A DNA stretch of 34,117 bases from positions 1 through 34,117 of the IMG/VR virus record IMGVR_UViG_3300038321_000129; one strand, 5' to 3'. Position 1 is the first letter of the stretch. Each line of letters begins with the position of its first letter. Both the position numbers and the translations under genes were made by a program. The notes beneath the pieces were generated by a model, which worked only from the letters and a program-made list of their open reading frames with translations, made no database searches and was not told where the DNA came from. The stretch comes from a virus. Positions 443 to 34,117 of the stretch are shown here, piece after piece.

Positions 443-683
443 TAGAGATAATAATTATATGGAGTCATGTAAGACGTTCCTGAAACGGATGAGGGTGTAA
501 TGATGCACGCAGGACAAAGTAAGGAACGGGATGGCTCTAAAATTAGATTATCGGTGTAGGTATAAGGACATCGCTAGAAAACAAACCCACTCAGGCGCGC
601 GTAACAAGATGGTGGCGGAAAAATAAGAACCCCTTGTCATGTTCCTTTGTTTGATCAACAGCCTACACTTATAATTTAATCAG

Positions 684-12312: not shown

Positions 12313-13089
12313 ATGCCTCTTGATTACGATACTGATAGATACGATGTTGGTGGATTTTCCACCACCCGCACATTACCTATACCACACCTTCTCGATTACG
12401 ATACGGATAGTTATGATGCTGGTGGATTTTCCACCACGCCGACCCCTATATTACCCTCATCATATCTAATCACCGCGCCAGAAATCCGTATATGTGACGA
12501 GAATTATATCCCGCGGATTGTCCTTGACGGATACAAAAATCTAACTTATACAGAACGACACAGAAACAGGGATTCATGGAGCTTTGAAGTATCCCGGCAA
12601 TCTAACTATGCACAATACCTCATCAAAGGACGAATTATACATTACGTTACTGGTGATTCTGTATATGCTTTGATTATCAAACAGATAGACGCAACCAAGG
12701 ATACTATCACGGTATCCGGCAACGAATACGCAGACGATTTATTATCCGCGAGGATTGCGCTTGTAGGCGTCCATGCCGGAGATGGCACGGACACAATACA
12801 GGATACCGCGGAAACCGCGTTTCGGCACTATGTCAACGGCAATATCATAGAAGCTACAGACACATATAGGCGTGACCCATTTCTGACTCTGGAACCTATA
12901 GATTATGGACGCGGCGAAACCGTGACGATATCAGCAAGATTCGATAATTTGCTTGACCTTTGCGAATCCATCGGGTCACTTGGAGGTATCGGGTGGCGGT
13001 CTGTAGTTGTAGACGACGACACAAAAGCGTGGGGTTGGTCTATCGTTATGTCCGTCGTTGAAGGAACCGATAAAGGGGAGGTAGTATAA
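12313..13089 (+). CDS. Baseplate or tail protein with a duplicated N-terminal LDYDTDxYDxGGFSTT module.
   Basis: 258 aa. The 24-aa module occurs twice (nt 12319-12366 and 12391-12438). Confidence 0.6.
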   Translation: MPLDYDTDRYDVGGFSTTRTLPIPHLLDYDTDSYDAGGFSTTPTPILPSSYLITAPEIRICDENYIPRIVLDGYKNLTYTERHRNRDSWSFEVSRQSNYAQYLIKGRIIHYVTGDSVYALIIKQIDATKDTITVSGNEYADDLLSARIALVGVHAGDGTDTIQDTAETAFRHYVNGNIIEATDTYRRDPFLTLEPIDYGRGETVTISARFDNLLDLCESIGSLGGIGWRSVVVDDDTKAWGWSIVMSVVEGTDKGEVV

Positions 13090-15577: not shown

Positions 15578-15618
15578 TGTTTTCTCCGTGCTCCTGTCAC
15601 GCATGACGGGGAGCATTC

Positions 15619-15649
15619 CGGGAAAATATAAAAAATTTAGAATTTCCCG
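15619..15649 (-). terminator. Intergenic hairpin (cgggaaa-N17-tttcccg) with T6 in the loop. Possible attenuator or terminator.
   Basis: 7-bp GC-containing stem spanning the stop codon of 15637..15879. Confidence 0.3.
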
Positions 15650-15879
15650 AGTTCTATACTTTCCCAGTTCCCCTGATCGATAACTCTATTTACATTGAAT
15701 GAATGGTATCTTACTACAATGTAGATTTTTTGTTCTCCAAGTTCTGGGTGTTCGTTGTCAATACCAGTAACATCTAAAGAAACCATTGTATTATCATAAC
15801 TTGTGTTCTTTACTGTGAATCCTTTTGCCGAGTATTTTTCTGCAAGTTCTTTCCCTTTTTCCTGTTGAAGTTTTGTCAT
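15637..15879 (-). CDS. Hypothetical protein (80 aa). First gene downstream of IR-A.
   Basis: Preceded by the conserved leader hairpin and SD (aggagaaactaaaATG-type). Confidence 0.65.
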   Translation of the reverse strand: MTKLQQEKGKELAEKYSAKGFTVKNTSYDNTMVSLDVTGIDNEHPELGEQKIYIVVRYHSFNVNRVIDQGNWESIELGKF

Positions 15880-15911
15880 TTTAGTTTCTCCATGTAGTTT
15901 GTCTTACTACA
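15880..15911 (-). promoter_or_regulatory. Conserved 5' leader hairpin plus SD, copy A.
   Basis: mRNA sense tgtagtaagacaaactacatggagaaactaaaATG. 6-bp stem tgtagt/actaca. Confidence 0.55.
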
Positions 15912-15930
15912 TATACTCTATTAGCTCTTA

Positions 15931-15945
15931 AAGTATATATACTTA
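15931..15945. promoter_or_regulatory. Palindromic TATA-like motif AAGTATATATACTTA.
   Basis: Exact consensus. Centre lies 59 nt upstream of ATG 15879. Confidence 0.55.
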
Positions 15946-16095
15946 TCTAAATCAATGGATTAAATTATAAGATTTTAATATTTGTTTATAATCAAGAGTT
16001 AGAAAGTATTCTGCGCTCAAATTGAGCCGCGTTTGTCTAAATACCTTAGTATATCTATTATATTATATATATATATATTATTATATATAATAATA

Positions 16096-16191
16096 AGAGT
16101 GTGTATTACTGTGGGGTTGTGAGGTGTCCGAACCACTCGTGCACAGTCCCACAGACGCGGGTGTAGTAAAAAGTTAGAATTTAATATTTTT
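16096..16191 (+). ncRNA. Candidate small RNA, or protein-binding cassette, in IR-A (strand uncertain).
   Basis: Conserved 5' agagtgtgt. Copy-specific GC-rich core with inverted ctgtggg (16109-16115) and cccacag (16148-16154). Conserved 3' ttagaatttaatattttt ending in T5. The AT-rich block lies immediately upstream. Confidence 0.3.
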
Positions 16192-16329
16192 GGAAAAAAT
16201 CTAAGGCTATACTAAACTCCAATCGTCCAACGGAGCTTAGTATGGGCTTGCCTTATTTTCTAATACCCTATTGTTTTTTATTATTTTTTATTATAATTAA
16301 ATAATTTAAGAGGATGGGTGAAAATGGGA

Positions 16330-16623
16330 TTATTTTTTGATCGTGCGCCTTGATAGTTCCTCCGTGATATTATTGTATGTCTTTTTCCATACCGGGGCGT
16401 CTATGGCTGGATTTCCTAAGTTATCGTTTTCCATATGCTCCTCGATGTCCTGTTTAATTACTGCCAGTGTATTATTTGATAAGTGTTTTATATGCTCATT
16501 GATAATCCCGCATACAGTATGCGGCGCATAGGTCATACGCCCTATCGCATACCGTTCTGCGTAAGTCAAAACCTCCTCGAAGTCAAACTTTGAGAGGGTT
16601 ACAGTTTCGCCAGTGGTTTTCAT
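16330..16623 (-). CDS. Hypothetical protein (97 aa).
   Basis: ATGA-coupled start at 16623 with a ggtggag SD. The track start 16635 lies inside the upstream gene. Confidence 0.6.
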   Translation of the reverse strand: MKTTGETVTLSKFDFEEVLTYAERYAIGRMTYAPHTVCGIINEHIKHLSNNTLAVIKQDIEEHMENDNLGNPAIDAPVWKKTYNNITEELSRRTIKK

Positions 16624-17075
16624 TTCTCCACCCACATCTTACACTTCGCCCCCGCGGATACGCTCATAGGCACGCTGGCGCGTTTTACGACACTTTGGTT
16701 GTTAGATGACTCTCTGATACGACAGCCGCCATAAAACGCGCTGTAGTGCTTACACGTGGCGCACGTGTCACTATAGATATACACGCCGCTTTCTGATATG
16801 TACTGCTTGCGTTTAGGGTTGACCCTCAGCGGATCGTTTGGGTATGGTAATGATGTCGCCGTAACCGCCTCTTGACGTGCTATACTAGCCGCGTTGCGGT
16901 TAGCTCGGGCATTTACTTTGGTCTCTTTTGCCCGTTTGTTGTAACATGCTTTACAAATCTTTCTATATCCAAGTTTCGTGTATGAGTCCCTCGGAAATTC
17001 GTTAAGCGGTTTCAGTTCGCCGCATTTGATACAGCGGTGTAGGGTCTTGAGGTTTGGTATGGTTGGTTCTGTCAT
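16620..17075 (-). CDS. Zn-ribbon protein (phage-type CxxC...LNEF...CKAC module).
   Basis: HRCIKCGELKPLNEFPRDSYTKLGYRKICKACYNKRAKE, plus C-terminal Cys pairs. Confidence 0.6.
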   Translation of the reverse strand: MTEPTIPNLKTLHRCIKCGELKPLNEFPRDSYTKLGYRKICKACYNKRAKETKVNARANRNAASIARQEAVTATSLPYPNDPLRVNPKRKQYISESGVYIYSDTCATCKHYSAFYGGCRIRESSNNQSVVKRASVPMSVSAGAKCKMWVEK

Positions 17076-17077
17076 GA

Positions 17078-17524
17078 TTATGTCTCCTTCTTGATACGTT
17101 CTATTTCTTTTTCATACTTCGATTTATGGGTTTTTCGTTGAGATTCATACATACATTCTTTCGAACAAAATCTTGGTAACCATCCCCGGTGATCATAATC
17201 ATAGTCTACCTGCGATTTACGACGCCTAAACTCGGTTCCGCATATCTCACAAGTAAATAATTCAAACTGTGCACCATATCCACCAACTCTAGGACAAGTT
17301 GGTTTGATTACACAGTCCCAATATTTCCTATAGGTATCTATACATTCCGTTCGGTGTAATCTATAATATGATTTGCAGTATTCTCCACGGCATGATTTAC
17401 AATAAAATTGTAATCCATCTTTCCTTGATTTATCAGCATAAAATTCGCTCAGCGGCAATTCTCGCCCGCATTTAGTGCATACTTTCGTTAACTCGTCTGT
17501 CATTTTTTGTTTGCTCCATGTCAT
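17078..17524 (-). CDS. Zn-ribbon protein (paralogous N-terminal module).
   Basis: CTKCGRELPLSEFYADKSRKDGLQFYCKSCRGEY. Further CxxC pairs (CEICGTEF, CSKEC). Confidence 0.6.
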   Translation of the reverse strand: MTWSKQKMTDELTKVCTKCGRELPLSEFYADKSRKDGLQFYCKSCRGEYCKSYYRLHRTECIDTYRKYWDCVIKPTCPRVGGYGAQFELFTCEICGTEFRRRKSQVDYDYDHRGWLPRFCSKECMYESQRKTHKSKYEKEIERIKKET

Positions 17525-20485: not shown

Positions 20486-20746
20486 TTACCAGTTTTCACC
20501 GTATAGACTATCCATTTTCTCCCAAAATTTCTTATCAATGCCAGCGAGATCGGAATACTTAGAATATTTGTTGTAAATCATAAGACCTTCTTCAGCATTT
20601 AAGATACTTTCTGCGGCATCTAACATCCCTTCAATTTTGAAGGAATGCCATCTAAAGTTTTTACGGTCTAGGTTCTCTACTGCTCTTTTGAGTCCGTTAA
20701 TTCGCTCATCAAAGAGTTCACAGAATTTATCATAGTTTCGTGTCAT
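20486..20746 (-). CDS. Hypothetical protein (86 aa) with the conserved leader.
   Basis: Preceded by the third copy of the promoter-leader module. Confidence 0.65.
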   Translation of the reverse strand: MTRNYDKFCELFDERINGLKRAVENLDRKNFRWHSFKIEGMLDAAESILNAEEGLMIYNKYSKYSDLAGIDKKFWEKMDSLYGENW

Positions 20747-20778
20747 TTTAGTTTCTCCTTGTAGTTCGTCTTACTACA
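20747..20778 (-). promoter_or_regulatory. Conserved 5' leader hairpin plus SD, copy C.
   Basis: mRNA sense tgtagtaagacgaactacaaggagaaactaaaATG. Confidence 0.55.
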
Positions 20779-20796
20779 ATAATATATATGTCGTAT

Positions 20797-20811
20797 AAGT
20801 ATATATACTTA
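20797..20811. promoter_or_regulatory. Palindromic TATA-like motif AAGTATATATACTTA.
   Basis: Exact consensus. Centre lies 58 nt upstream of ATG 20746. Confidence 0.55.
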
Positions 20812-21051
20812 ACTATTATAATACAAGCAATCTAAAAGAAGGTTGAGGATTTCAGGGCAGAAGAAAGACCCTTGCGAGGTATGGCAACGTGATATTAGGT
20901 ATCCTTAAGGTGTGTGGTATCTATGGCAAAGTGGAGATGTCCCGTTATACGTGTCATTATGGTTAGGAGGTTGTGTAAGAAGTTCCCCATAATCCTCAAC
21001 AAAGATAACTTGGTGTATTGGATATTAATGCTTTCGGTGAAAAAAAGAGGG

Positions 21052-23349: not shown

Positions 23350-23549
23350 CTGTCACACCACTCGATATCCACTAAATAAATTACCGTGCCCTTATCAGTT
23401 ATCATAACCGTCATACCTCCTTCTCCATAATAACTAATGTGCTTGTGCGCGGTCTCTCTGTCAAGATGGTTGCTCCGCAGACATCCATTCGGGTGTTTAT
23501 ACTCGCATCCTCGGCACTTTGATTCCAAAACTGCTATTAAGTTACACAT
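23340..23549 (-). CDS. Hypothetical small Cys-containing protein.
   Basis: 69 aa (CRGCEYKHPNGC). Overlaps both neighbouring genes by 8-10 nt. Confidence 0.5.
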   Translation of the reverse strand: MCNLIAVLESKCRGCEYKHPNGCLRSNHLDRETAHKHISYYGEGGMTVMITDKGTVIYLVDIEWCDRWN

Positions 23550-23838
23550 AATTCACCTCTAATTGTTCCCGGGAAACAATCAAATCATAATCTAAATTGT
23601 TGGCTTTGTGCGCGTTGCATCTATGACACAGCGCGCAAACATTATCCCGAGTATCTTTTCCGCCTTTTGATAATGGGATGACATGATCCCGGGTCGGTCG
23701 TTCTTCCTCCGTAAACTCCTTCCCGCATTTCAGACACTTATTACCTTGAGCTTTTACGATACGTTCGAATGCTTCGTTTGTTAGTCGGTCGGTTCGTTTT
23801 GTGTTGCGTATGGCGTTTTCTCTTTTTTTCTTTTTCAT
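23542..23838 (-). CDS. HNH endonuclease.
   Basis: CLKCGKEF...RDHVIPLSKGGKDTRDNVCALCHRCNAHK. Confidence 0.85.
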   Translation of the reverse strand: MKKKKRENAIRNTKRTDRLTNEAFERIVKAQGNKCLKCGKEFTEEERPTRDHVIPLSKGGKDTRDNVCALCHRCNAHKANNLDYDLIVSREQLEVNYV

Positions 23839-26110: not shown

Positions 26111-26180
26111 GTTTTTGTTCCTTTTTTGTTTCGTTTCGTTTGTAACAACATCTCTGCTGTTACTTGTCTATTAGATGTAT

Positions 26181-26195
26181 AGGTATATATACTTA
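26181..26195. promoter_or_regulatory. Palindromic TATA-like motif (aggtatatatactta).
   Basis: 14/15 match. Centre lies 78 nt from ATG 26110. Confidence 0.5.
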
Positions 26196-26216
26196 ACCAT
26201 TACCACGTTAACATAT

Positions 26217-26231
26217 TAGTATATATACTCA
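26217..26231. promoter_or_regulatory. Palindromic TATA-like motif (tagtatatatactca).
   Basis: 13/15 match. Centre lies 26 nt from ATG 26250, which has no SD. Confidence 0.5.
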
Positions 26232-26249
26232 TACATCTAATTAATAATC

Positions 26250-26480
26250 ATGAAGGTAGAAATAGTGTGCCCGTATTGCGGTCATGTATGGATGAGAAAC
26301 ACCGATACAAAAAGCAGAGCGTGTCCGAAATGTCACCGGATAGTAGTCCCAAGAATACCGCGGGATATGCTGACCTGTAACCGGTGCGGCAATGTCTGGG
26401 AGCCGAGAGCGTCCGGTAAGATACCCGGCACGTGTCCTAAATGTAAGAGCCCATACTGGAATAAGGAGCGGGTGAGGTGA
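26250..26480 (+). CDS. Double Zn-ribbon protein (76 aa). Candidate early regulator.
   Basis: CPYCGH...CPKCH and CNRCGN...CPKCKSPYW. Confidence 0.65.
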   Translation: MKVEIVCPYCGHVWMRNTDTKSRACPKCHRIVVPRIPRDMLTCNRCGNVWEPRASGKIPGTCPKCKSPYWNKERVR

Positions 26481-26668
26481 CAGCCTCACAATCCGAGGAA
26501 TCACAGACGAACATGAAAACGGCGTATGTGTGCTATACATGCACACACGCGATACTCCCGGAAGAGTATTGGTGGAACCCTGCGCATATGGTGACGTGTG
26601 CGAGAGGGAAAACCCCCACGATCATTCAGGCGAAAAAGAAATGTAAGATGTATATACCAACACTATAA
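26477..26668 (+). CDS. Hypothetical small protein (63 aa).
   Basis: Start codon overlaps the upstream stop (GTGA, as placed in the ORF track). Contains CYTCTH...C. Confidence 0.5.
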   Translation: MTASQSEESQTNMKTAYVCYTCTHAILPEEYWWNPAHMVTCARGKTPTIIQAKKKCKMYIPTL

Positions 26669-26680
26669 ATCATATGTTGG
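26657..26680. terminator. Hairpin (ccaaca-N12-tgttgg) flanked by T-rich or A-rich tracts between convergent genes.
   Basis: 6-bp stem overlapping the stop of 26477..26668. The minus strand shows tttttcttttttttt after the stop of 26717..27076. Confidence 0.35.
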
Positions 26681-26716
26681 TTTATAGATTTTAAAATAAT
26701 AAAAAAAAAGAAAAAT

Positions 26717-27869: not shown

Positions 27870-28321
27870 CGCGAAAACAGAAATATACACCTAAATGCAC
27901 GTCTGCCGAAAAGGCCGTTAGAATAGCCACGATTTACCGGTTACTCCTCAGCGGAATGCGTCGGCGCGAGGTGTTACAATATGTAACAGAGAAAACCGAT
28001 TGGGGGATAGAAACATCTGCCATTGACAAATACATAGCGGAAGCGACGAAAGAGATCAAGGAAGTCACCGCCGAAGAGATTGAAACCGCGCGGGGAATGG
28101 CATACAAACGACTCGACACGCTTTATTATAAATCGCTTTTAATCAACGATTATAAAACCGCACTTGCTGTCCAAAAAGAGATGAATGAACTGTTTGGACT
28201 GAAAATTATTAAACAGGAAATATCTGGGAATATGGGTGTCCAGTTTGTCGACGACGTGCCGAAAGACGCTGCCAAACCAGACCATACGGCTGACGACATA
28301 GATGTAGATGAAGGGTATTAA
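27866..28321 (+). CDS. terS: Putative terminase small subunit.
   Basis: 151 aa. Overlaps and immediately precedes TerL. No diagnostic motif. Confidence 0.45.
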   Translation: MTRKQKYTPKCTSAEKAVRIATIYRLLLSGMRRREVLQYVTEKTDWGIETSAIDKYIAEATKEIKEVTAEEIETARGMAYKRLDTLYYKSLLINDYKTALAVQKEMNELFGLKIIKQEISGNMGVQFVDDVPKDAAKPDHTADDIDVDEGY

Positions 28322-29981
28322 AGACCTCTTAACCCCTGCGTTTTATCACGCATGGAACGCTTTATTCAATCCCCTCTATACCTATTACATTTTCAAGGGC
28401 GGTAGGAACTCGGGGAAAAGCACGTTTGTATCTCGGTGTATTATCCTCCTCATGATGAAGTTCCCGGTTAACGCGCTCGTTGTCCGTAAAGTGGCGAATA
28501 CCCTGTCTGAATCCGTCTATGAACAGTTGATAGACTCCATCGAATCGTTAGGCGTAAACGATTACTGGAAACGGTCTAAGAGTCCGCTGGGACTGATGTA
28601 TATTCCGAGAGGGAACCGTATCATATTCAGGGGTGCAGACGATCCAGTTAAACTCAAATCCATCAAGTCTCACAAATTCCCCATTGCTATTTTATGGATT
28701 GAGGAGGTATCCGAGTTTAAAAATGAGGATGAAGTTAGCACGATCGTTAACTCCGTTATCCGGGCTGAGTTGCCGGAAGGGTTAAAATATTATATCTTTT
28801 ACAGTTATAACCCGCCCCGCGCGCTTAACTCATGGGTCAATGTCAAATACAATACTTCGCTGATACCTTCTGATACCTACGTTCACCATTCGACGGTCAA
28901 TGATAACCCATACCTCAGTAAACAGCTCAAAGCCACGCTCATAGAGCTTCAAGCCAAGAAACCCGATCGGTATAGATGGGAGTTCCTCGGTGAAGCTGTA
29001 GGCTCTGGAGTCATGCCGTTCGATAATCTTGTATTCCGCGAGATCACAGATGAGGAGATACGGACCTTTGATAATTATCGGTGTGGTATCGACTGGGGAT
29101 ATGCTAACGATGCGTTTGCGTATGTCCGCTGGCATTATGATCGAACACGCCGGAAGATATATGCAGTCGATGAACGGTATGGTGTGCGGCTCACTGACCG
29201 GTCAAACGCAGATTGGCTCAAGGCTAGGAGGTATGCGAACGACCATACGTATATCAAAGCCGATTCCGCCGAACCTAAGACGATAGACTTGTATCGGAAC
29301 GATTACAACGTGACGAATATAATTGCGGCTACTAAGGGACCCGGGAGTGTAGAGACTGGGGAGAAGTGGCTGAATGATGAGATATTAGAGATCGTTATTG
29401 ACGAGAGACGCACGCCGAATATCGGAAGGGAGTTTAGGACTATCGACTATGCCCGAACCAAGGACGGCACGATATTAAGCCGATTGGTGGATTTGGATAA
29501 TCATTGTATTGCTGAAGGGACTCTGATTACAACCGATAAAGGACAAAGACCGATCGAAACGTTAAGTATTGGTGATTGGGTCTTAACTAGAGACGGATTT
29601 AAACGAGTATTGAAGGTATGGGATAATGGGGTTAGGGACGTTGTTTCGGTTAAATTATCTAATGGTTATTCACTGACAGCAACCCACGATCATAAACTTT
29701 TCGTTAACTTAGAAAGGTTTGTGCCGATAGATGAAATAAGTTATACCGACACGCTATATTGTTTAAATAAATCGGTCGCAGAGGATGCGCAAATCGTATC
29801 AGTGCAAGACGCCGGAAAGATGCAGGTTTATGATTTAACCGTTGAAGATTCTCATGAATATTTTGCCAATGGAATCTTAGTCCACAATTGCATCGACGCC
29901 ACACGCTACGCATTCGAGGACGATATAGGCGTTGGAACTTACGAGGATTACGGGTTTATGTCCGGTGGTGGATTGATTTAA
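28308..29981 (+). CDS. terL: Terminase large subunit (PBSX/Terminase_3-like) interrupted by a mini-intein.
   Basis: Walker A FKGGRNSGKST. Walker B ILWIEEVSE. Nuclease Asp GIDWGYANDAF. The C-terminal nuclease motif DNH|CIDATRYAFED is split by 128 aa. Confidence 0.9.
   Translation: MKGIKDLLTPAFYHAWNALFNPLYTYYIFKGGRNSGKSTFVSRCIILLMMKFPVNALVVRKVANTLSESVYEQLIDSIESLGVNDYWKRSKSPLGLMYIPRGNRIIFRGADDPVKLKSIKSHKFPIAILWIEEVSEFKNEDEVSTIVNSVIRAELPEGLKYYIFYSYNPPRALNSWVNVKYNTSLIPSDTYVHHSTVNDNPYLSKQLKATLIELQAKKPDRYRWEFLGEAVGSGVMPFDNLVFREITDEEIRTFDNYRCGIDWGYANDAFAYVRWHYDRTRRKIYAVDERYGVRLTDRSNADWLKARRYANDHTYIKADSAEPKTIDLYRNDYNVTNIIAATKGPGSVETGEKWLNDEILEIVIDERRTPNIGREFRTIDYARTKDGTILSRLVDLDNHCIAEGTLITTDKGQRPIETLSIGDWVLTRDGFKRVLKVWDNGVRDVVSVKLSNGYSLTATHDHKLFVNLERFVPIDEISYTDTLYCLNKSVAEDAQIVSVQDAGKMQVYDLTVEDSHEYFANGILVHNCIDATRYAFEDDIGVGTYEDYGFMSGGGLI
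29505..29888 (+). mobile_element. Class-1 mini-intein (128 aa, no homing-endonuclease domain) in TerL.
   Basis: Block A CIAEGTLI. Block B LTATHDHKLF. Block F VYDLTVEDSHEYFANG. Block G ILVHN followed by +1 Cys. In frame (384 nt). AT-richer than the flanking extein. Confidence 0.85.
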
Positions 29982-33363: not shown

Positions 33364-33477
33364 TCTATTTGTTACTATACTTATCCGATTTATTTCTAAT
33401 ACCTATTAGAAAATAAGGCGAGCCATTTCTGAACCCCGTTCGCCGAATGCGCTTTTGTATGAACGTAGATTTTTTTT

Positions 33478-33565
33478 AAAAATATTAAATTCTTAAATTC
33501 TAATACCCCTCGTCCGTGGGGCCGCCCACCCGGCCCGGTGAGTCCCACAGGAACACACACACTCT
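33478..33565 (-). ncRNA. Candidate small RNA, or protein-binding cassette, in IR-B (strand uncertain).
   Basis: Minus strand reads agagtgtgt, then a GC-rich core (cctgtgggactcaccgggccgggtgggcggccccacgg), then ttagaatttaagaatttaatattttt. Same flanks as the IR-A cassette but a different core. Confidence 0.3.
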
Positions 33566-33714
33566 ATTATTATATATAATAATATATATATATATAATAT
33601 AATAGATATACTAGAGTAGATTGGCAAATCGCGCCCAAATTCAGCCCCGAATACTTTCTAACTTTTGATTATAAACAAATATTAAATTATAAGATTTTAA
33701 TATTATTGATAGAT

Positions 33715-33729
33715 AAGTATATATACTTA
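33715..33729. promoter_or_regulatory. Palindromic TATA-like motif AAGTATATATACTTA.
   Basis: Exact consensus. Centre lies 57 nt upstream of ATG 33779. Confidence 0.55.
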
Positions 33730-33746
33730 TACAACATATATAGTAT

Positions 33747-33778
33747 TGTAGTAATACAAACTACAAGGAGAAACTAAA
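33747..33778 (+). promoter_or_regulatory. Conserved 5' leader hairpin plus SD, copy B.
   Basis: tgtagtaatacaaactacaaggagaaactaaaATG. 6-bp stem tgtagt/actaca. Confidence 0.55.
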
Positions 33779-33973
33779 ATGAAATTCTACGAAAACTCAG
33801 AACTTGTAGCGACACTGAACAATGATGATGCAATTGAGCACTGTCTCAAATGCCCATATTGTTACCACAACGAGGATGGATCACACACATGCACTATAGG
33901 TGTTGAAGATTTTAACCTCGAAGAAAGGTTAGAATACGAAGATGACAACCAGCTTGAATGCTGGATGTCCTAA
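33779..33973 (+). CDS. Small acidic Cys-containing protein (64 aa). First gene downstream of IR-B.
   Basis: CLKCPYCYHNEDGSHTC. A T5 tract follows the stop. Confidence 0.6.
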   Translation: MKFYENSELVATLNNDDAIEHCLKCPYCYHNEDGSHTCTIGVEDFNLEERLEYEDDNQLECWMS

Positions 33974-34018
33974 CCCCATTTTTCCCGGACTGCCCAACCT
34001 GATGTGTTAGGGGGGCAC

Positions 34019-34117
34019 GGAGATTAAAGAAATTATGATTGAGAAACAGAAAACACTTGATAATAGCCAATTGAAAACGCTTGATGATATCGCAAGTTCG
34101 TATTGTGAATTAGAGTG
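34019..34117. repeat. Terminal direct repeat, copy 2 (identical to 1..99).
   Basis: Verbatim duplicate of the window start. It contains the SD and the first 83 nt of ORF 17..217. Confidence 0.95.

Follow-up and report, generated by a model that had tools for sequence, protein, structure and literature searches.

The genome analysed here is IMG/VR record IMGVR_UViG_3300038321_000129, of which all 34,117 nucleotides form the window. It carries two inverted copies of one intergenic module of about 400 bp, designated inverted repeat A (IR-A, 15880-16329) and inverted repeat B (IR-B, 33364-33778, minus strand). Comparison of the two copies with each other and with those of related viruses suggests that they are paired recombination or inversion sites, centred on a core made of A and T only and flanked by a GC-rich cassette. 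This reading is given a probability of roughly 0.45. Exchange at the core is supported by the comparative data, while the proteins involved and the role of the cassette as a clamp are what we infer. A preliminary description had taken the GC-rich cassettes for candidate paired small RNAs. As a claim on small RNAs it is weak; it is of moderate interest in pointing to a putative module for half-genome inversion, with an A/T crossover core of 50 nt.

Self-comparison revealed that bases 1-99 of the window recur at 34019-34117. The window is therefore a circularly closed, complete tailed-virus genome of 34,018 bp. Independent assemblies of 34,073 and 34,137 bp agree with it in the proteins encoded around both repeats and in their order. 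The cores of IR-A and IR-B lie about 17.5 kb apart and cut the circle into arcs of about 17.5 and 16.5 kb, which are near halves. Each module fills the space between two operons, after the stop of the incoming and before the start of the outgoing one; IR-A is crossed by minus-strand and IR-B by plus-strand transcription. The conserved flanks reported in the preliminary description do exist as inverted arms, one pair of 137 nt (15959-16095 and 33565-33701, 85% complementary) and one of 106 nt (16160-16265 and 33404-33509, 75% complementary), and the cassettes between both pairs do not match. Read in the orientation of that description, the module begins with a ribosome-binding site and promoter containing AAGTATATATACTT, followed by a 21-mer, a left block, the A/T core and the boundary GT(A/G)TT(A/C)CTGTG. 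Then come the cassette, an AU-rich block with the invariant ATATTTTT, a run of six to eight A, hairpins and the invariant GCCTTATTTT(C/A)TAATA. The layout of A/T core, fixed-length and near-invariant boundary, cassette and ATATTTTT was kept in all copies.

The main evidence comes from the core. The two cores (41 and 40 nt; Table 1) are the longest pure A/T runs in the genome, and 49 nt are exactly shared between the modules (16047-16095 in IR-A). Identity between IR-A and IR-B amounts to 80% in the promoter, 75% in the left block, 98% in the core, 49% in the cassette and 76% in the right block. Orthologous left blocks are 82-97% identical, and the cores of the window are 78-84% identical to most orthologous cores. 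The same inverted two-module arrangement was found in the 37.7-kb genome UViG_3300028601_000010, the two cores of which are 92% identical to each other and 78-84% to those of the window. Outside the core, orthologues are thus closer than paralogues, whereas inside the core the reverse is true. As core identity is high and the flanks have diverged, homogenisation is confined to about 50 nt; concerted evolution within a genome was observed for this core only, in two genomes.

Chimeric modules, known here from metagenome contigs of other strains and samples, occur beside the standard junctions. Contig L099 displays an A1 cassette (94% identical to that of IR-A) adjoining a homologue of the IR-A neighbour gene, while its left block is 97% identical to that of IR-B and is followed by homologues of the two genes that follow IR-B. 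Contig L106 contains a B2 cassette which is 100% identical to that of the B-type contig L105 and adjoins the same 92-aa neighbour protein, but its left block is of the A type (92-93%). On the right side, L105 and L106 are mostly 100% identical (96-100% per 50-nt window) over about 650 nt, against about 75% left of the core, and the switch point lies inside the (TA)n run. A third contig, L110, is apparently in the L106 configuration, with a B-type right and an A-type left side. An intramolecular crossover between the inverted cores of a circular genome inverts one arc and generates exactly the junctions of the L099 and L106 type.

L105 and L106 are k=119 contigs without Ns. Because the exact repeat of 49 nt is shorter than k, their junctions are backed by real k-mers. 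An assembly artefact, or a bipartite genome with shared termini, was rejected since three independent assemblies give the same 34-kb circle, the repeat is shorter than k and Ns are absent. Many contigs of the clade (L103, L107-L114, L120, L122-L125) stop in or beside the (TA)n core, which fits a drop in coverage or a fork in the assembly graph. As the core breaks many assemblies of the clade, a chimeric junction at such a repeat should not be taken as the sign of a different virus.

In the mechanism that we propose, the two palindromic A/T cores would form a recombination-site pair, and exchange between them would invert one half of the genome relative to the other. The core, which is expected to be easily melted and prone to form a cruciform, would act both as crossover point and as unwinding element. 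Processing would probably be achieved by an annealing ATPase, an SSB-like protein, an exonuclease and endonuclease-VII-like proteins of the virus, the candidates being AAA_24, DUF669, PD-(D/E)XK and three endonuclease VII/HNH-like proteins, two of which are encoded beside IR-A. The cassette, as the first copy-specific DNA beside the exchanged tract, would serve as a GC clamp constrained in its composition and bounding melting or branch migration, and not as a sequence-specific or structure-specific RNA. Such a clamp would explain why homogenisation ends at the cassette and why only composition is conserved. More speculatively, and by analogy, the core may also serve for unwinding in a duplicated origin of the SPP1 oriL and oriR kind.

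Several points weigh against paired recombination sites. The three independent full assemblies all show the same isomer, and the chimeric contigs number only two or three, come from different samples or strains and are not demonstrably from one population. No integrase, invertase, or serine or tyrosine recombinase, and hence no dedicated recombinase, was found with Pfam and PHROGs among the 30 open reading frames (ORFs) scanned. The pair of A/T core and GC-rich DNA is lacking in distant relatives, which counts against the origin part of the proposal, and the role of GC clamp is argued from composition only. The two cores could also co-vary through co-evolution with a binding protein instead of gene conversion. 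Finally, mosaicism is high in this clade. Its small genes and promoter modules recur in other contexts, as in contigs L127 and L128, where the 80-aa gene stands behind a plain divergent promoter pair, and exchange between viruses could have produced some of the junctions.

This mosaic structure would also agree with a view of the modules as plain transcription punctuation, namely a duplicated spacer of terminator and promoter in which the A/T core is an AT-rich upstream element and the cassette neutral GC-rich filler, the chimeras resulting from exchange between co-infecting relatives at conserved linkers. The position of both modules exactly between an operon end and an operon start suits such a function, the terminators are convincing and the promoter module is common to seven other sites. 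Punctuation nevertheless appears rather unlikely. It leaves unexplained why the 50-nt core is homogenised within genomes and its flanks are not, why GC-richness has survived a rapid turnover of sequence, and why the IR-specific blocks are present at just two of the nine promoter sites.

For the preferred reading of paired recombination sites, the nearest described phenomenon is the IR-flanked invertible region of about 30 kb in the Anabaena cyanophages A-1(L), N-1, A-Lf14, A-Alj1 and A-Hlh1, which occurs in both orientations, the isomers coexisting according to PCR and reads (bioRxiv 10.64898/2026.02.14.705889). Like the virus of the window, these are tailed viruses with two inverted repeats of 400-700 nt in analogous positions, in which only short motifs are kept and for which no dedicated recombinase was identified. 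Coexistence of isomers was shown there, whereas here it is suggested by chimeric metagenome contigs. The repeats of the two systems share no sequence similarity; those of the window split the genome into near halves, and the tract that would be exchanged is a 50-nt A/T palindromic core with copy-specific GC-rich flanks. If the proposal is true, the window shows genome isomerism of a tailed virus that is independent of a recombinase, in a compact form with a genome of 34 kb and an exchange tract of 50 nt; such isomerism has only just been reported, in cyanophages. It would also join intergenic A/T palindromes, viral annealing and resolvase proteins and the change to concatemeric replication.

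As in the 2-micron plasmid, plastid and cyanophage flip-flop systems, two inverted copies divide a circular genome. In the 2-micron plasmid and in plastid genomes, recombination between the two inverted repeats inverts the unique regions. The 2-micron flip converts theta replication to double rolling circle and uses the tyrosine recombinase Flp with its FRT site. In contrast, no dedicated recombinase was found here, and the repeats are only about 75-85% identical outside the 50-nt core. The invertible segments of Mu (G segment, Gin) and P1 (C segment, Cin) are tail-fibre segments of about 3-4 kb with crossover sites of 26-34 bp, an adjacent serine invertase gene and an enhancer. These systems share with our proposal the inversion of a phage segment between inverted repeats, but the virus of the window lacks an invertase in the Pfam and PHROGs scans. 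Since no recombinase is present, the module is, as judged from gene content, not a Gin/Cin/Hin invertase system, and by the Rfam scans it is not a member of any Rfam family. In herpes simplex virus (HSV), the isomerising genome is likewise divided by two inverted repeats whose recombination inverts the unique regions, and an A/T-centred palindromic origin (oriS) is present twice, being located in the repeats.

By analogy, the nearest mechanistic models may be SPP1 oriL/oriR together with the textbook inverted repeats of the 2-micron plasmid, plastids and HSV. SPP1 contains two origins with AT-rich unwinding elements, of which oriR is intergenic, bracketed by terminator and promoter and located in the late genes after a MuF-like gene; oriR was proposed to stall forks and to trigger recombination-dependent concatemer synthesis via an exonuclease, an annealing protein, SSB and a resolvase (PMC6316719, PMC3485210). 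The window likewise shows two AT-rich candidate elements of origin type, one with the replication genes and one intergenic in the head-gene region after a MuF-like gene. The SPP1 origins, however, contain direct repeats bound by gp38, while neither initiator nor iterons were identified here; oriL lies inside a gene, while both modules here are intergenic; and inversion isomers arising at the origins have not been described for SPP1. No sequence similarity between SPP1 and the window was detected, and the portal and head proteins match no SPP1-like record.

It could be argued that a duplicated origin is the primary function of the modules. By analogy with SPP1, the A/T core would unwind, an initiator would bind to the TTTAATATTT repeats and perhaps to the G-rich beginning of the cassette, and one copy would fire while the other stalls forks and leads from theta to concatemer replication, recombination being a by-product. 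The location of the genome's two longest pure A/T runs in the two modules, each flanked by GC-rich DNA, agrees with this. So does the distribution of TTTAATATTT, which occurs at only four sites genome-wide, as two direct copies per IR, about 200 bp apart and bracketing core and cassette. IR-A closes the replication-gene operon, and IR-B, after portal and MuF, before the head genes and among small genes, occupies the slot of SPP1 oriR. Restart-type proteins as in SPP1 (exonuclease, annealing ATPase, SSB-like, resolvase-like) are encoded as well. Against this, clear iterons are missing, as each copy has just two 10-mers, and the TTAGAA-type repeats are not kept in B2 copies. No initiator protein was identified, the GC skew reflects transcription alone, the primase gene has other AT-rich intergenic regions nearer to it, and the architecture is absent from more distant relatives. 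A primary origin function is regarded as doubtful. The preliminary description had named sites for an origin or regulatory protein as its alternative; this lies nearer to what the comparative data favour.

A scheme combining these models, in which the modules act as a flip-flop switch, is considered quite improbable. The palindromic A/T cores would be unwinding sites resembling origins, and recombination between them during replication would reverse a fork as in the 2-micron plasmid or restart a stalled fork as proposed for SPP1, taking theta replication to concatemers for headful packaging with no dedicated recombinase. The flip would also alter which operon reads from upstream into the late genes, and the cassettes would confine the exchange and could yield short G-rich RNAs that open or prime the core.

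The cassettes were compared in 22 recovered module copies, 15 of them distinct over the cassette region. Five or more variants were distinguished (A1, A2, a partial A3, B1, B2 and B3). The segments quoted in the preliminary description are correct; that of IR-A was read directly at 16096-16191, and that of IR-B has an exact minus-strand match at 33506-33556, against 0 matches by chance in shuffled sequence. The same description spoke of identical flanks around a different core. The flanks proved to be 75-76% identical, and the A and B cassettes, at 49%, can still be aligned via CTGTG(G/T)GG, a central GTG..C.G, CCC..G and G.GGT, with 9 extra nt in A. They are therefore diverged homologues and not unrelated inserts. 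Apart from the tail beside the upstream gene, the cassette is the fastest-evolving part of the module, as paralogues reach 49% identity against 75-76% in the flanks, and orthologues 66-71% against 81-91%; within one cassette type at orthologous positions, identity is 94-97%. GC content is 62-78% in every variant, and the cassettes are the GC-richest 50-nt windows of the intergenic DNA of the genome. According to these comparisons, the cassette has kept its composition, while neither its sequence nor a fold has persisted.

The inverted pair ctgtggg / cccac[a/g]g and the inner ggccg-N6-cggcc hairpin noticed earlier are present, the IR-A stem even extending to 13 pairs, two of them G-T. The conclusion that the cassettes are structured was not confirmed, since their folds are no stabler than those of dinucleotide shuffles. 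For the seven natural variants folded as DNA, z-scores were +0.18, -1.41, -0.23, +0.32, -0.88, -1.92 and -0.07; for the units with flanks, the proposed strand gave -0.95 and -0.63 and the opposite strand -1.4 and -1.6. Variant B3 is essentially unfolded and lacks the hairpins. The covariation check suggested at that time was done with RNAalifold on the 15 distinct copies and gave -7.3 kcal/mol with a covariation term of -0.1, no consensus fold and no common cassette helix. Consensus folds of A only and B only were weak and without covariation on either strand. A candidate long-range helix of CUGUGGGG with CCCAUAC is compatible in 94% of the cells, its covariation being not significant. Scanning both IRs against Rfam 15 returned nothing at the gathering threshold, permissive scans giving sub-threshold chance hits only. 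Inserts that are GC-rich and look like hairpins between AT-rich flanks can stem from composition, so that shuffle and covariation controls are needed.

Other functions of the cassette were considered and rejected. A guide or antisense RNA was dropped for lack of complementarity beyond 10 nt between any cassette variant and the genome, and a modular guide or decoy design gained no positive support. A canonical G-quadruplex motif is not a shared feature, as B1, B2 and B3 have it on one strand, A2 has it on the other and A1 lacks it. Rho utilisation, which needs C-rich RNA in gene sense, fits B2 but not A2, where G equals C. An intrinsic terminator was dismissed because no U-tract follows the cassette on either strand, and an attP core or CRISPR-repeat mimic because neither an integrase nor an array is present, the only sub-threshold hit being on the (TA)n run. 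No small ORF common to A and B was found in the IRs.

These data bear directly on paired non-coding RNAs. In that reading, a short cassette transcript would start from a promoter located in the A/T core or at its edge, which would be sigma-70-like or, in case of an archaeal host, TATA-like. It would end at the invariant T5, giving about 80-90 nt, or run to the bidirectional terminator, giving about 200 nt. The products would be two related regulatory or primer RNAs, each with a variable, GC-rich 5' part and a conserved, AU-rich 3' part. The small-RNA-gene layout held in part. The order of the elements is kept in all copies and a strand-specific hairpin with U-tract lies downstream, but support from structure, Rfam and covariation is absent. 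The near-invariant boundary of fixed length, the invariant ATATTTTT and the retention of cassette types at orthologous positions would suit an RNA, and so would TTGnCn/TTACCA-17-TA(T/G)TAT, which is kept in all module copies; promoter-like hits in the IR region, however, occur at chance frequency. Downstream, a small hairpin in + orientation before the invariant GCCUUAUUUU is 88.9% paired, includes U-G pairs that would be A-C on the opposite strand, and shows double changes in 8 cells against 0 of 500 shuffles. Since this strand-specific hairpin and its U-tract follow 60-70 nt beyond T5 on the strand of the cassette direction, some transcription in that direction is plausible, and a short transcript through the cassette possible.

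T5 itself could not be maintained as a terminator of bacterial type, as no hairpin precedes it and it abuts A6, the U-tract of the terminator of the incoming operon on the opposite strand. The missing hairpin speaks against the RNAs if the host is bacterial. In archaea, a TATA-like A/T core followed by oligo-T is an ordinary gene layout. Several operons of the window end with T6-T8 runs without hairpin, the main convergent point having a classical hairpin terminator, and the head proteins resemble those of a methanogen virus; oligo-T termination may therefore apply. Considering also the absence of an Rfam match, of a consensus structure or covariation, of significance for the long-range helix and of target complementarity in the genome, with hairpins at shuffle level and essentially none in B3, paired RNAs are judged unlikely. 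The oppositely oriented paired RNAs putL and putR of HK022 form conserved two-stem structures in a transcribed leader, downstream of promoters. The cassette of the window, by comparison, shows no conserved structure and precedes the promoter module on the gene-sense strand.

The perfect 14-bp palindrome AAGTATATATACTT was counted at 9 operon starts, where 0.07 were expected, and may be a promoter or operator specific to the virus, or a TATA-like element. In divergent regions its sites are paired, 36 nt apart, and it was also seen in a relative whose AAA_24 is 53% identical (L009, 17499-17628). The promoter module is found again at 20743-20816 and 33709-33782. From its sequence, the arrangement of A-tract, hairpin and T-tract is a bidirectional terminator. 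In IR-A, the minus-strand fold has a z of -3.3 against shuffles, and the consensus of the A copies with the 13-bp hairpin reaches -15.5 kcal/mol on the gene-sense strand versus -11.2 on the other. The AU-rich block contains invariant columns in the 15 distinct copies. The 21-mer reads alike on the plus strand of both modules despite their inverted surroundings, and in 12 copies of relatives its orientation tracks the type of the left half. By this comparison, the difference is a minute inversion of a 9-nt loop between arms of 6-9 bp. A second inverted shared element of 44 nt (15583-15626 and 33980-34023, 75%) lies one small gene farther out on each side and forms a hairpin before the ribosome-binding site of the next gene. 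Its position indicates that the ancestral duplication spanned at least 700 nt and that the first gene slot has since been replaced.

Table 1. Coordinates of the elements of both modules and of other features in the window.
Feature	Position	Strand	Details
IR-A promoter and 5' untranslated region (UTR) module of outgoing operon (gene 15879<-15637)	15876-15958	-	14-bp palindrome AAGTATATATACTT at 15931-15944
IR-A 21-mer ATTAAA-TTATAAGAT-TTTAAT	15959-15979		9-nt centre inverted between A-type and B-type left halves
IR-A conserved left block	15980-16055	+	first TTTAATATTT 15974-15983; AGTTAGAAAGTATTC 15997-16011; dyad GCTCAAATTGAGC 16015-16027
IR-A sigma-70-like TTGTCT-17-TATTAT, pointing toward core	16033-16061	+	17-nt spacing in all copies
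IR-A A/T core, 41 nt pure A/T, (TA)n and perfect 20-nt palindrome TATTATTATATATAATAATA (16076-16095)	16056-16096		longest A/T run of the genome
IR-A boundary motif GAGTGTGTATTA and GC-rich cassette A1 (16109-16166, 62% GC)	16097-16166	+	
IR-A AU-rich conserved block	16167-16201		second TTTAATATTT 16180-16189; T5 16187-16191; A6 16194-16199
IR-A bidirectional terminator, AAGGC...13-bp hairpin...GCCTT then ATTTTCT	16203-16265		invariant GCCTTATTTTCTAATA at 16250-16265
IR-B promoter and 5' UTR module of outgoing operon (gene 33779->33973)	33702-33782	+	palindrome 33715-33728
IR-B left block	33605-33701	-	21-mer 33681-33701; TTGCCA-17-TATTAT 33627-33599
IR-B A/T core, 40 nt pure A/T	33565-33604		palindrome TATTATTATATATAATAATA 33565-33584
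IR-B boundary motif and GC-rich cassette B1 (33503-33550, 75% GC)	33503-33564	-	
IR-B AU-rich block (T5, A8 at 33468-33485) and terminator region	33404-33502		ends in GCCTTATTTTCTAATA 33404-33419
AAGTATATATACTT sites	15931, 17561, 20797, 26182, 26218, 27110, 27146, 30710, 33715		every operon start
Terminase large subunit (TerL) with C-terminal Hint/intein domain (about aa 400-527)	28308-29981	+	Pfam/PHROGs
Endonuclease VII/HNH-like proteins (n=3)	16620-17075, 17078-17524, 23542-23838	-	Pfam/PHROGs
DUF3800-X RNA	463-536	+	Rfam 15, 54.1 bits, E 3e-9; sole Rfam family in window

The modules used for comparison were obtained from IMG/VR (L001-L004, including both copies of UViG_3300028601_000010), from a scan of GTDB genomes, which gave one 4.2-kb contig (L087) in a Fermentimonas metagenome-assembled genome (MAG), and from ENA, JGI and Logan contigs reached via the two flanking small genes. 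DNA of the IR region had no match in GenBank phages or PLSDB plasmids, and exact and degenerate motif scans of IMG/VR produced nothing beyond three contigs that were known before. In distant relatives, neither long-range inverted repeats nor an IR homologue (nhmmer) nor a pair of A/T run and GC-rich DNA was detected. The 97-aa neighbour gene of IR-A was abandoned as a route to more copies, as its homologues (63-64%) occur in unrelated viruses without the module. Two contigs with such homologues (L094 and L095, 64%) encode an MCM helicase, an ERCC4 nuclease, thymidylate synthase, dCTP deaminase and Tad2-like proteins.

Pfam and PHROGs scans of the window identified a head and tail set with portal, MuF-like protein, head and tail genes and tape measure. 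A recombination and replication block comprises the AAA_24 ATPase, DUF669, a PD-(D/E)XK nuclease, an N6 methylase, an SNF2-type helicase and a DUF3987 primase-type protein. Two of the three endonuclease VII/HNH-like proteins are paralogous Zn-ribbon proteins encoded directly upstream of IR-A. The TerL of a Brevibacillus phage aligns to aa 1-401 only of the TerL of the window, and close relatives have versions of 695 and 743 aa. The DUF3800-X RNA lies just 3' of a promoter-type palindrome (428-449) and 5' of the head genes. ARAGORN gave neither a tRNA nor a tmRNA.

The host signals conflict. Contigs of the clade were binned in Fermentimonas and Dysgonamonadaceae MAGs (L087 = JAQUIZ010000184.1; cluster members MDD3901830.1 and MDD2245354.1). 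The sole match of the portal and major head proteins is a Methanomicrobiales virus (BK063669.1; 24-31% identity), while TerL resembles that of Firmicutes phages, with 59% identity to the Brevibacillus phage protein. A ribosome-binding site of the GGAG type precedes 26 of the 46 genes.

Two minor features were also noted. An in-frame tandem duplication with a 72-nt period (12318-12365 and 12390-12437, 48 nt aligned, 90% identical) is located at the start of the tail-region gene 12313-13089. The 606-nt gap at 26111-26716, in which no convincing ORF and no Rfam match was found, contains a GC-rich island (0.66 near 26380) and two promoter palindromes, and could be an unannotated gene or RNA.

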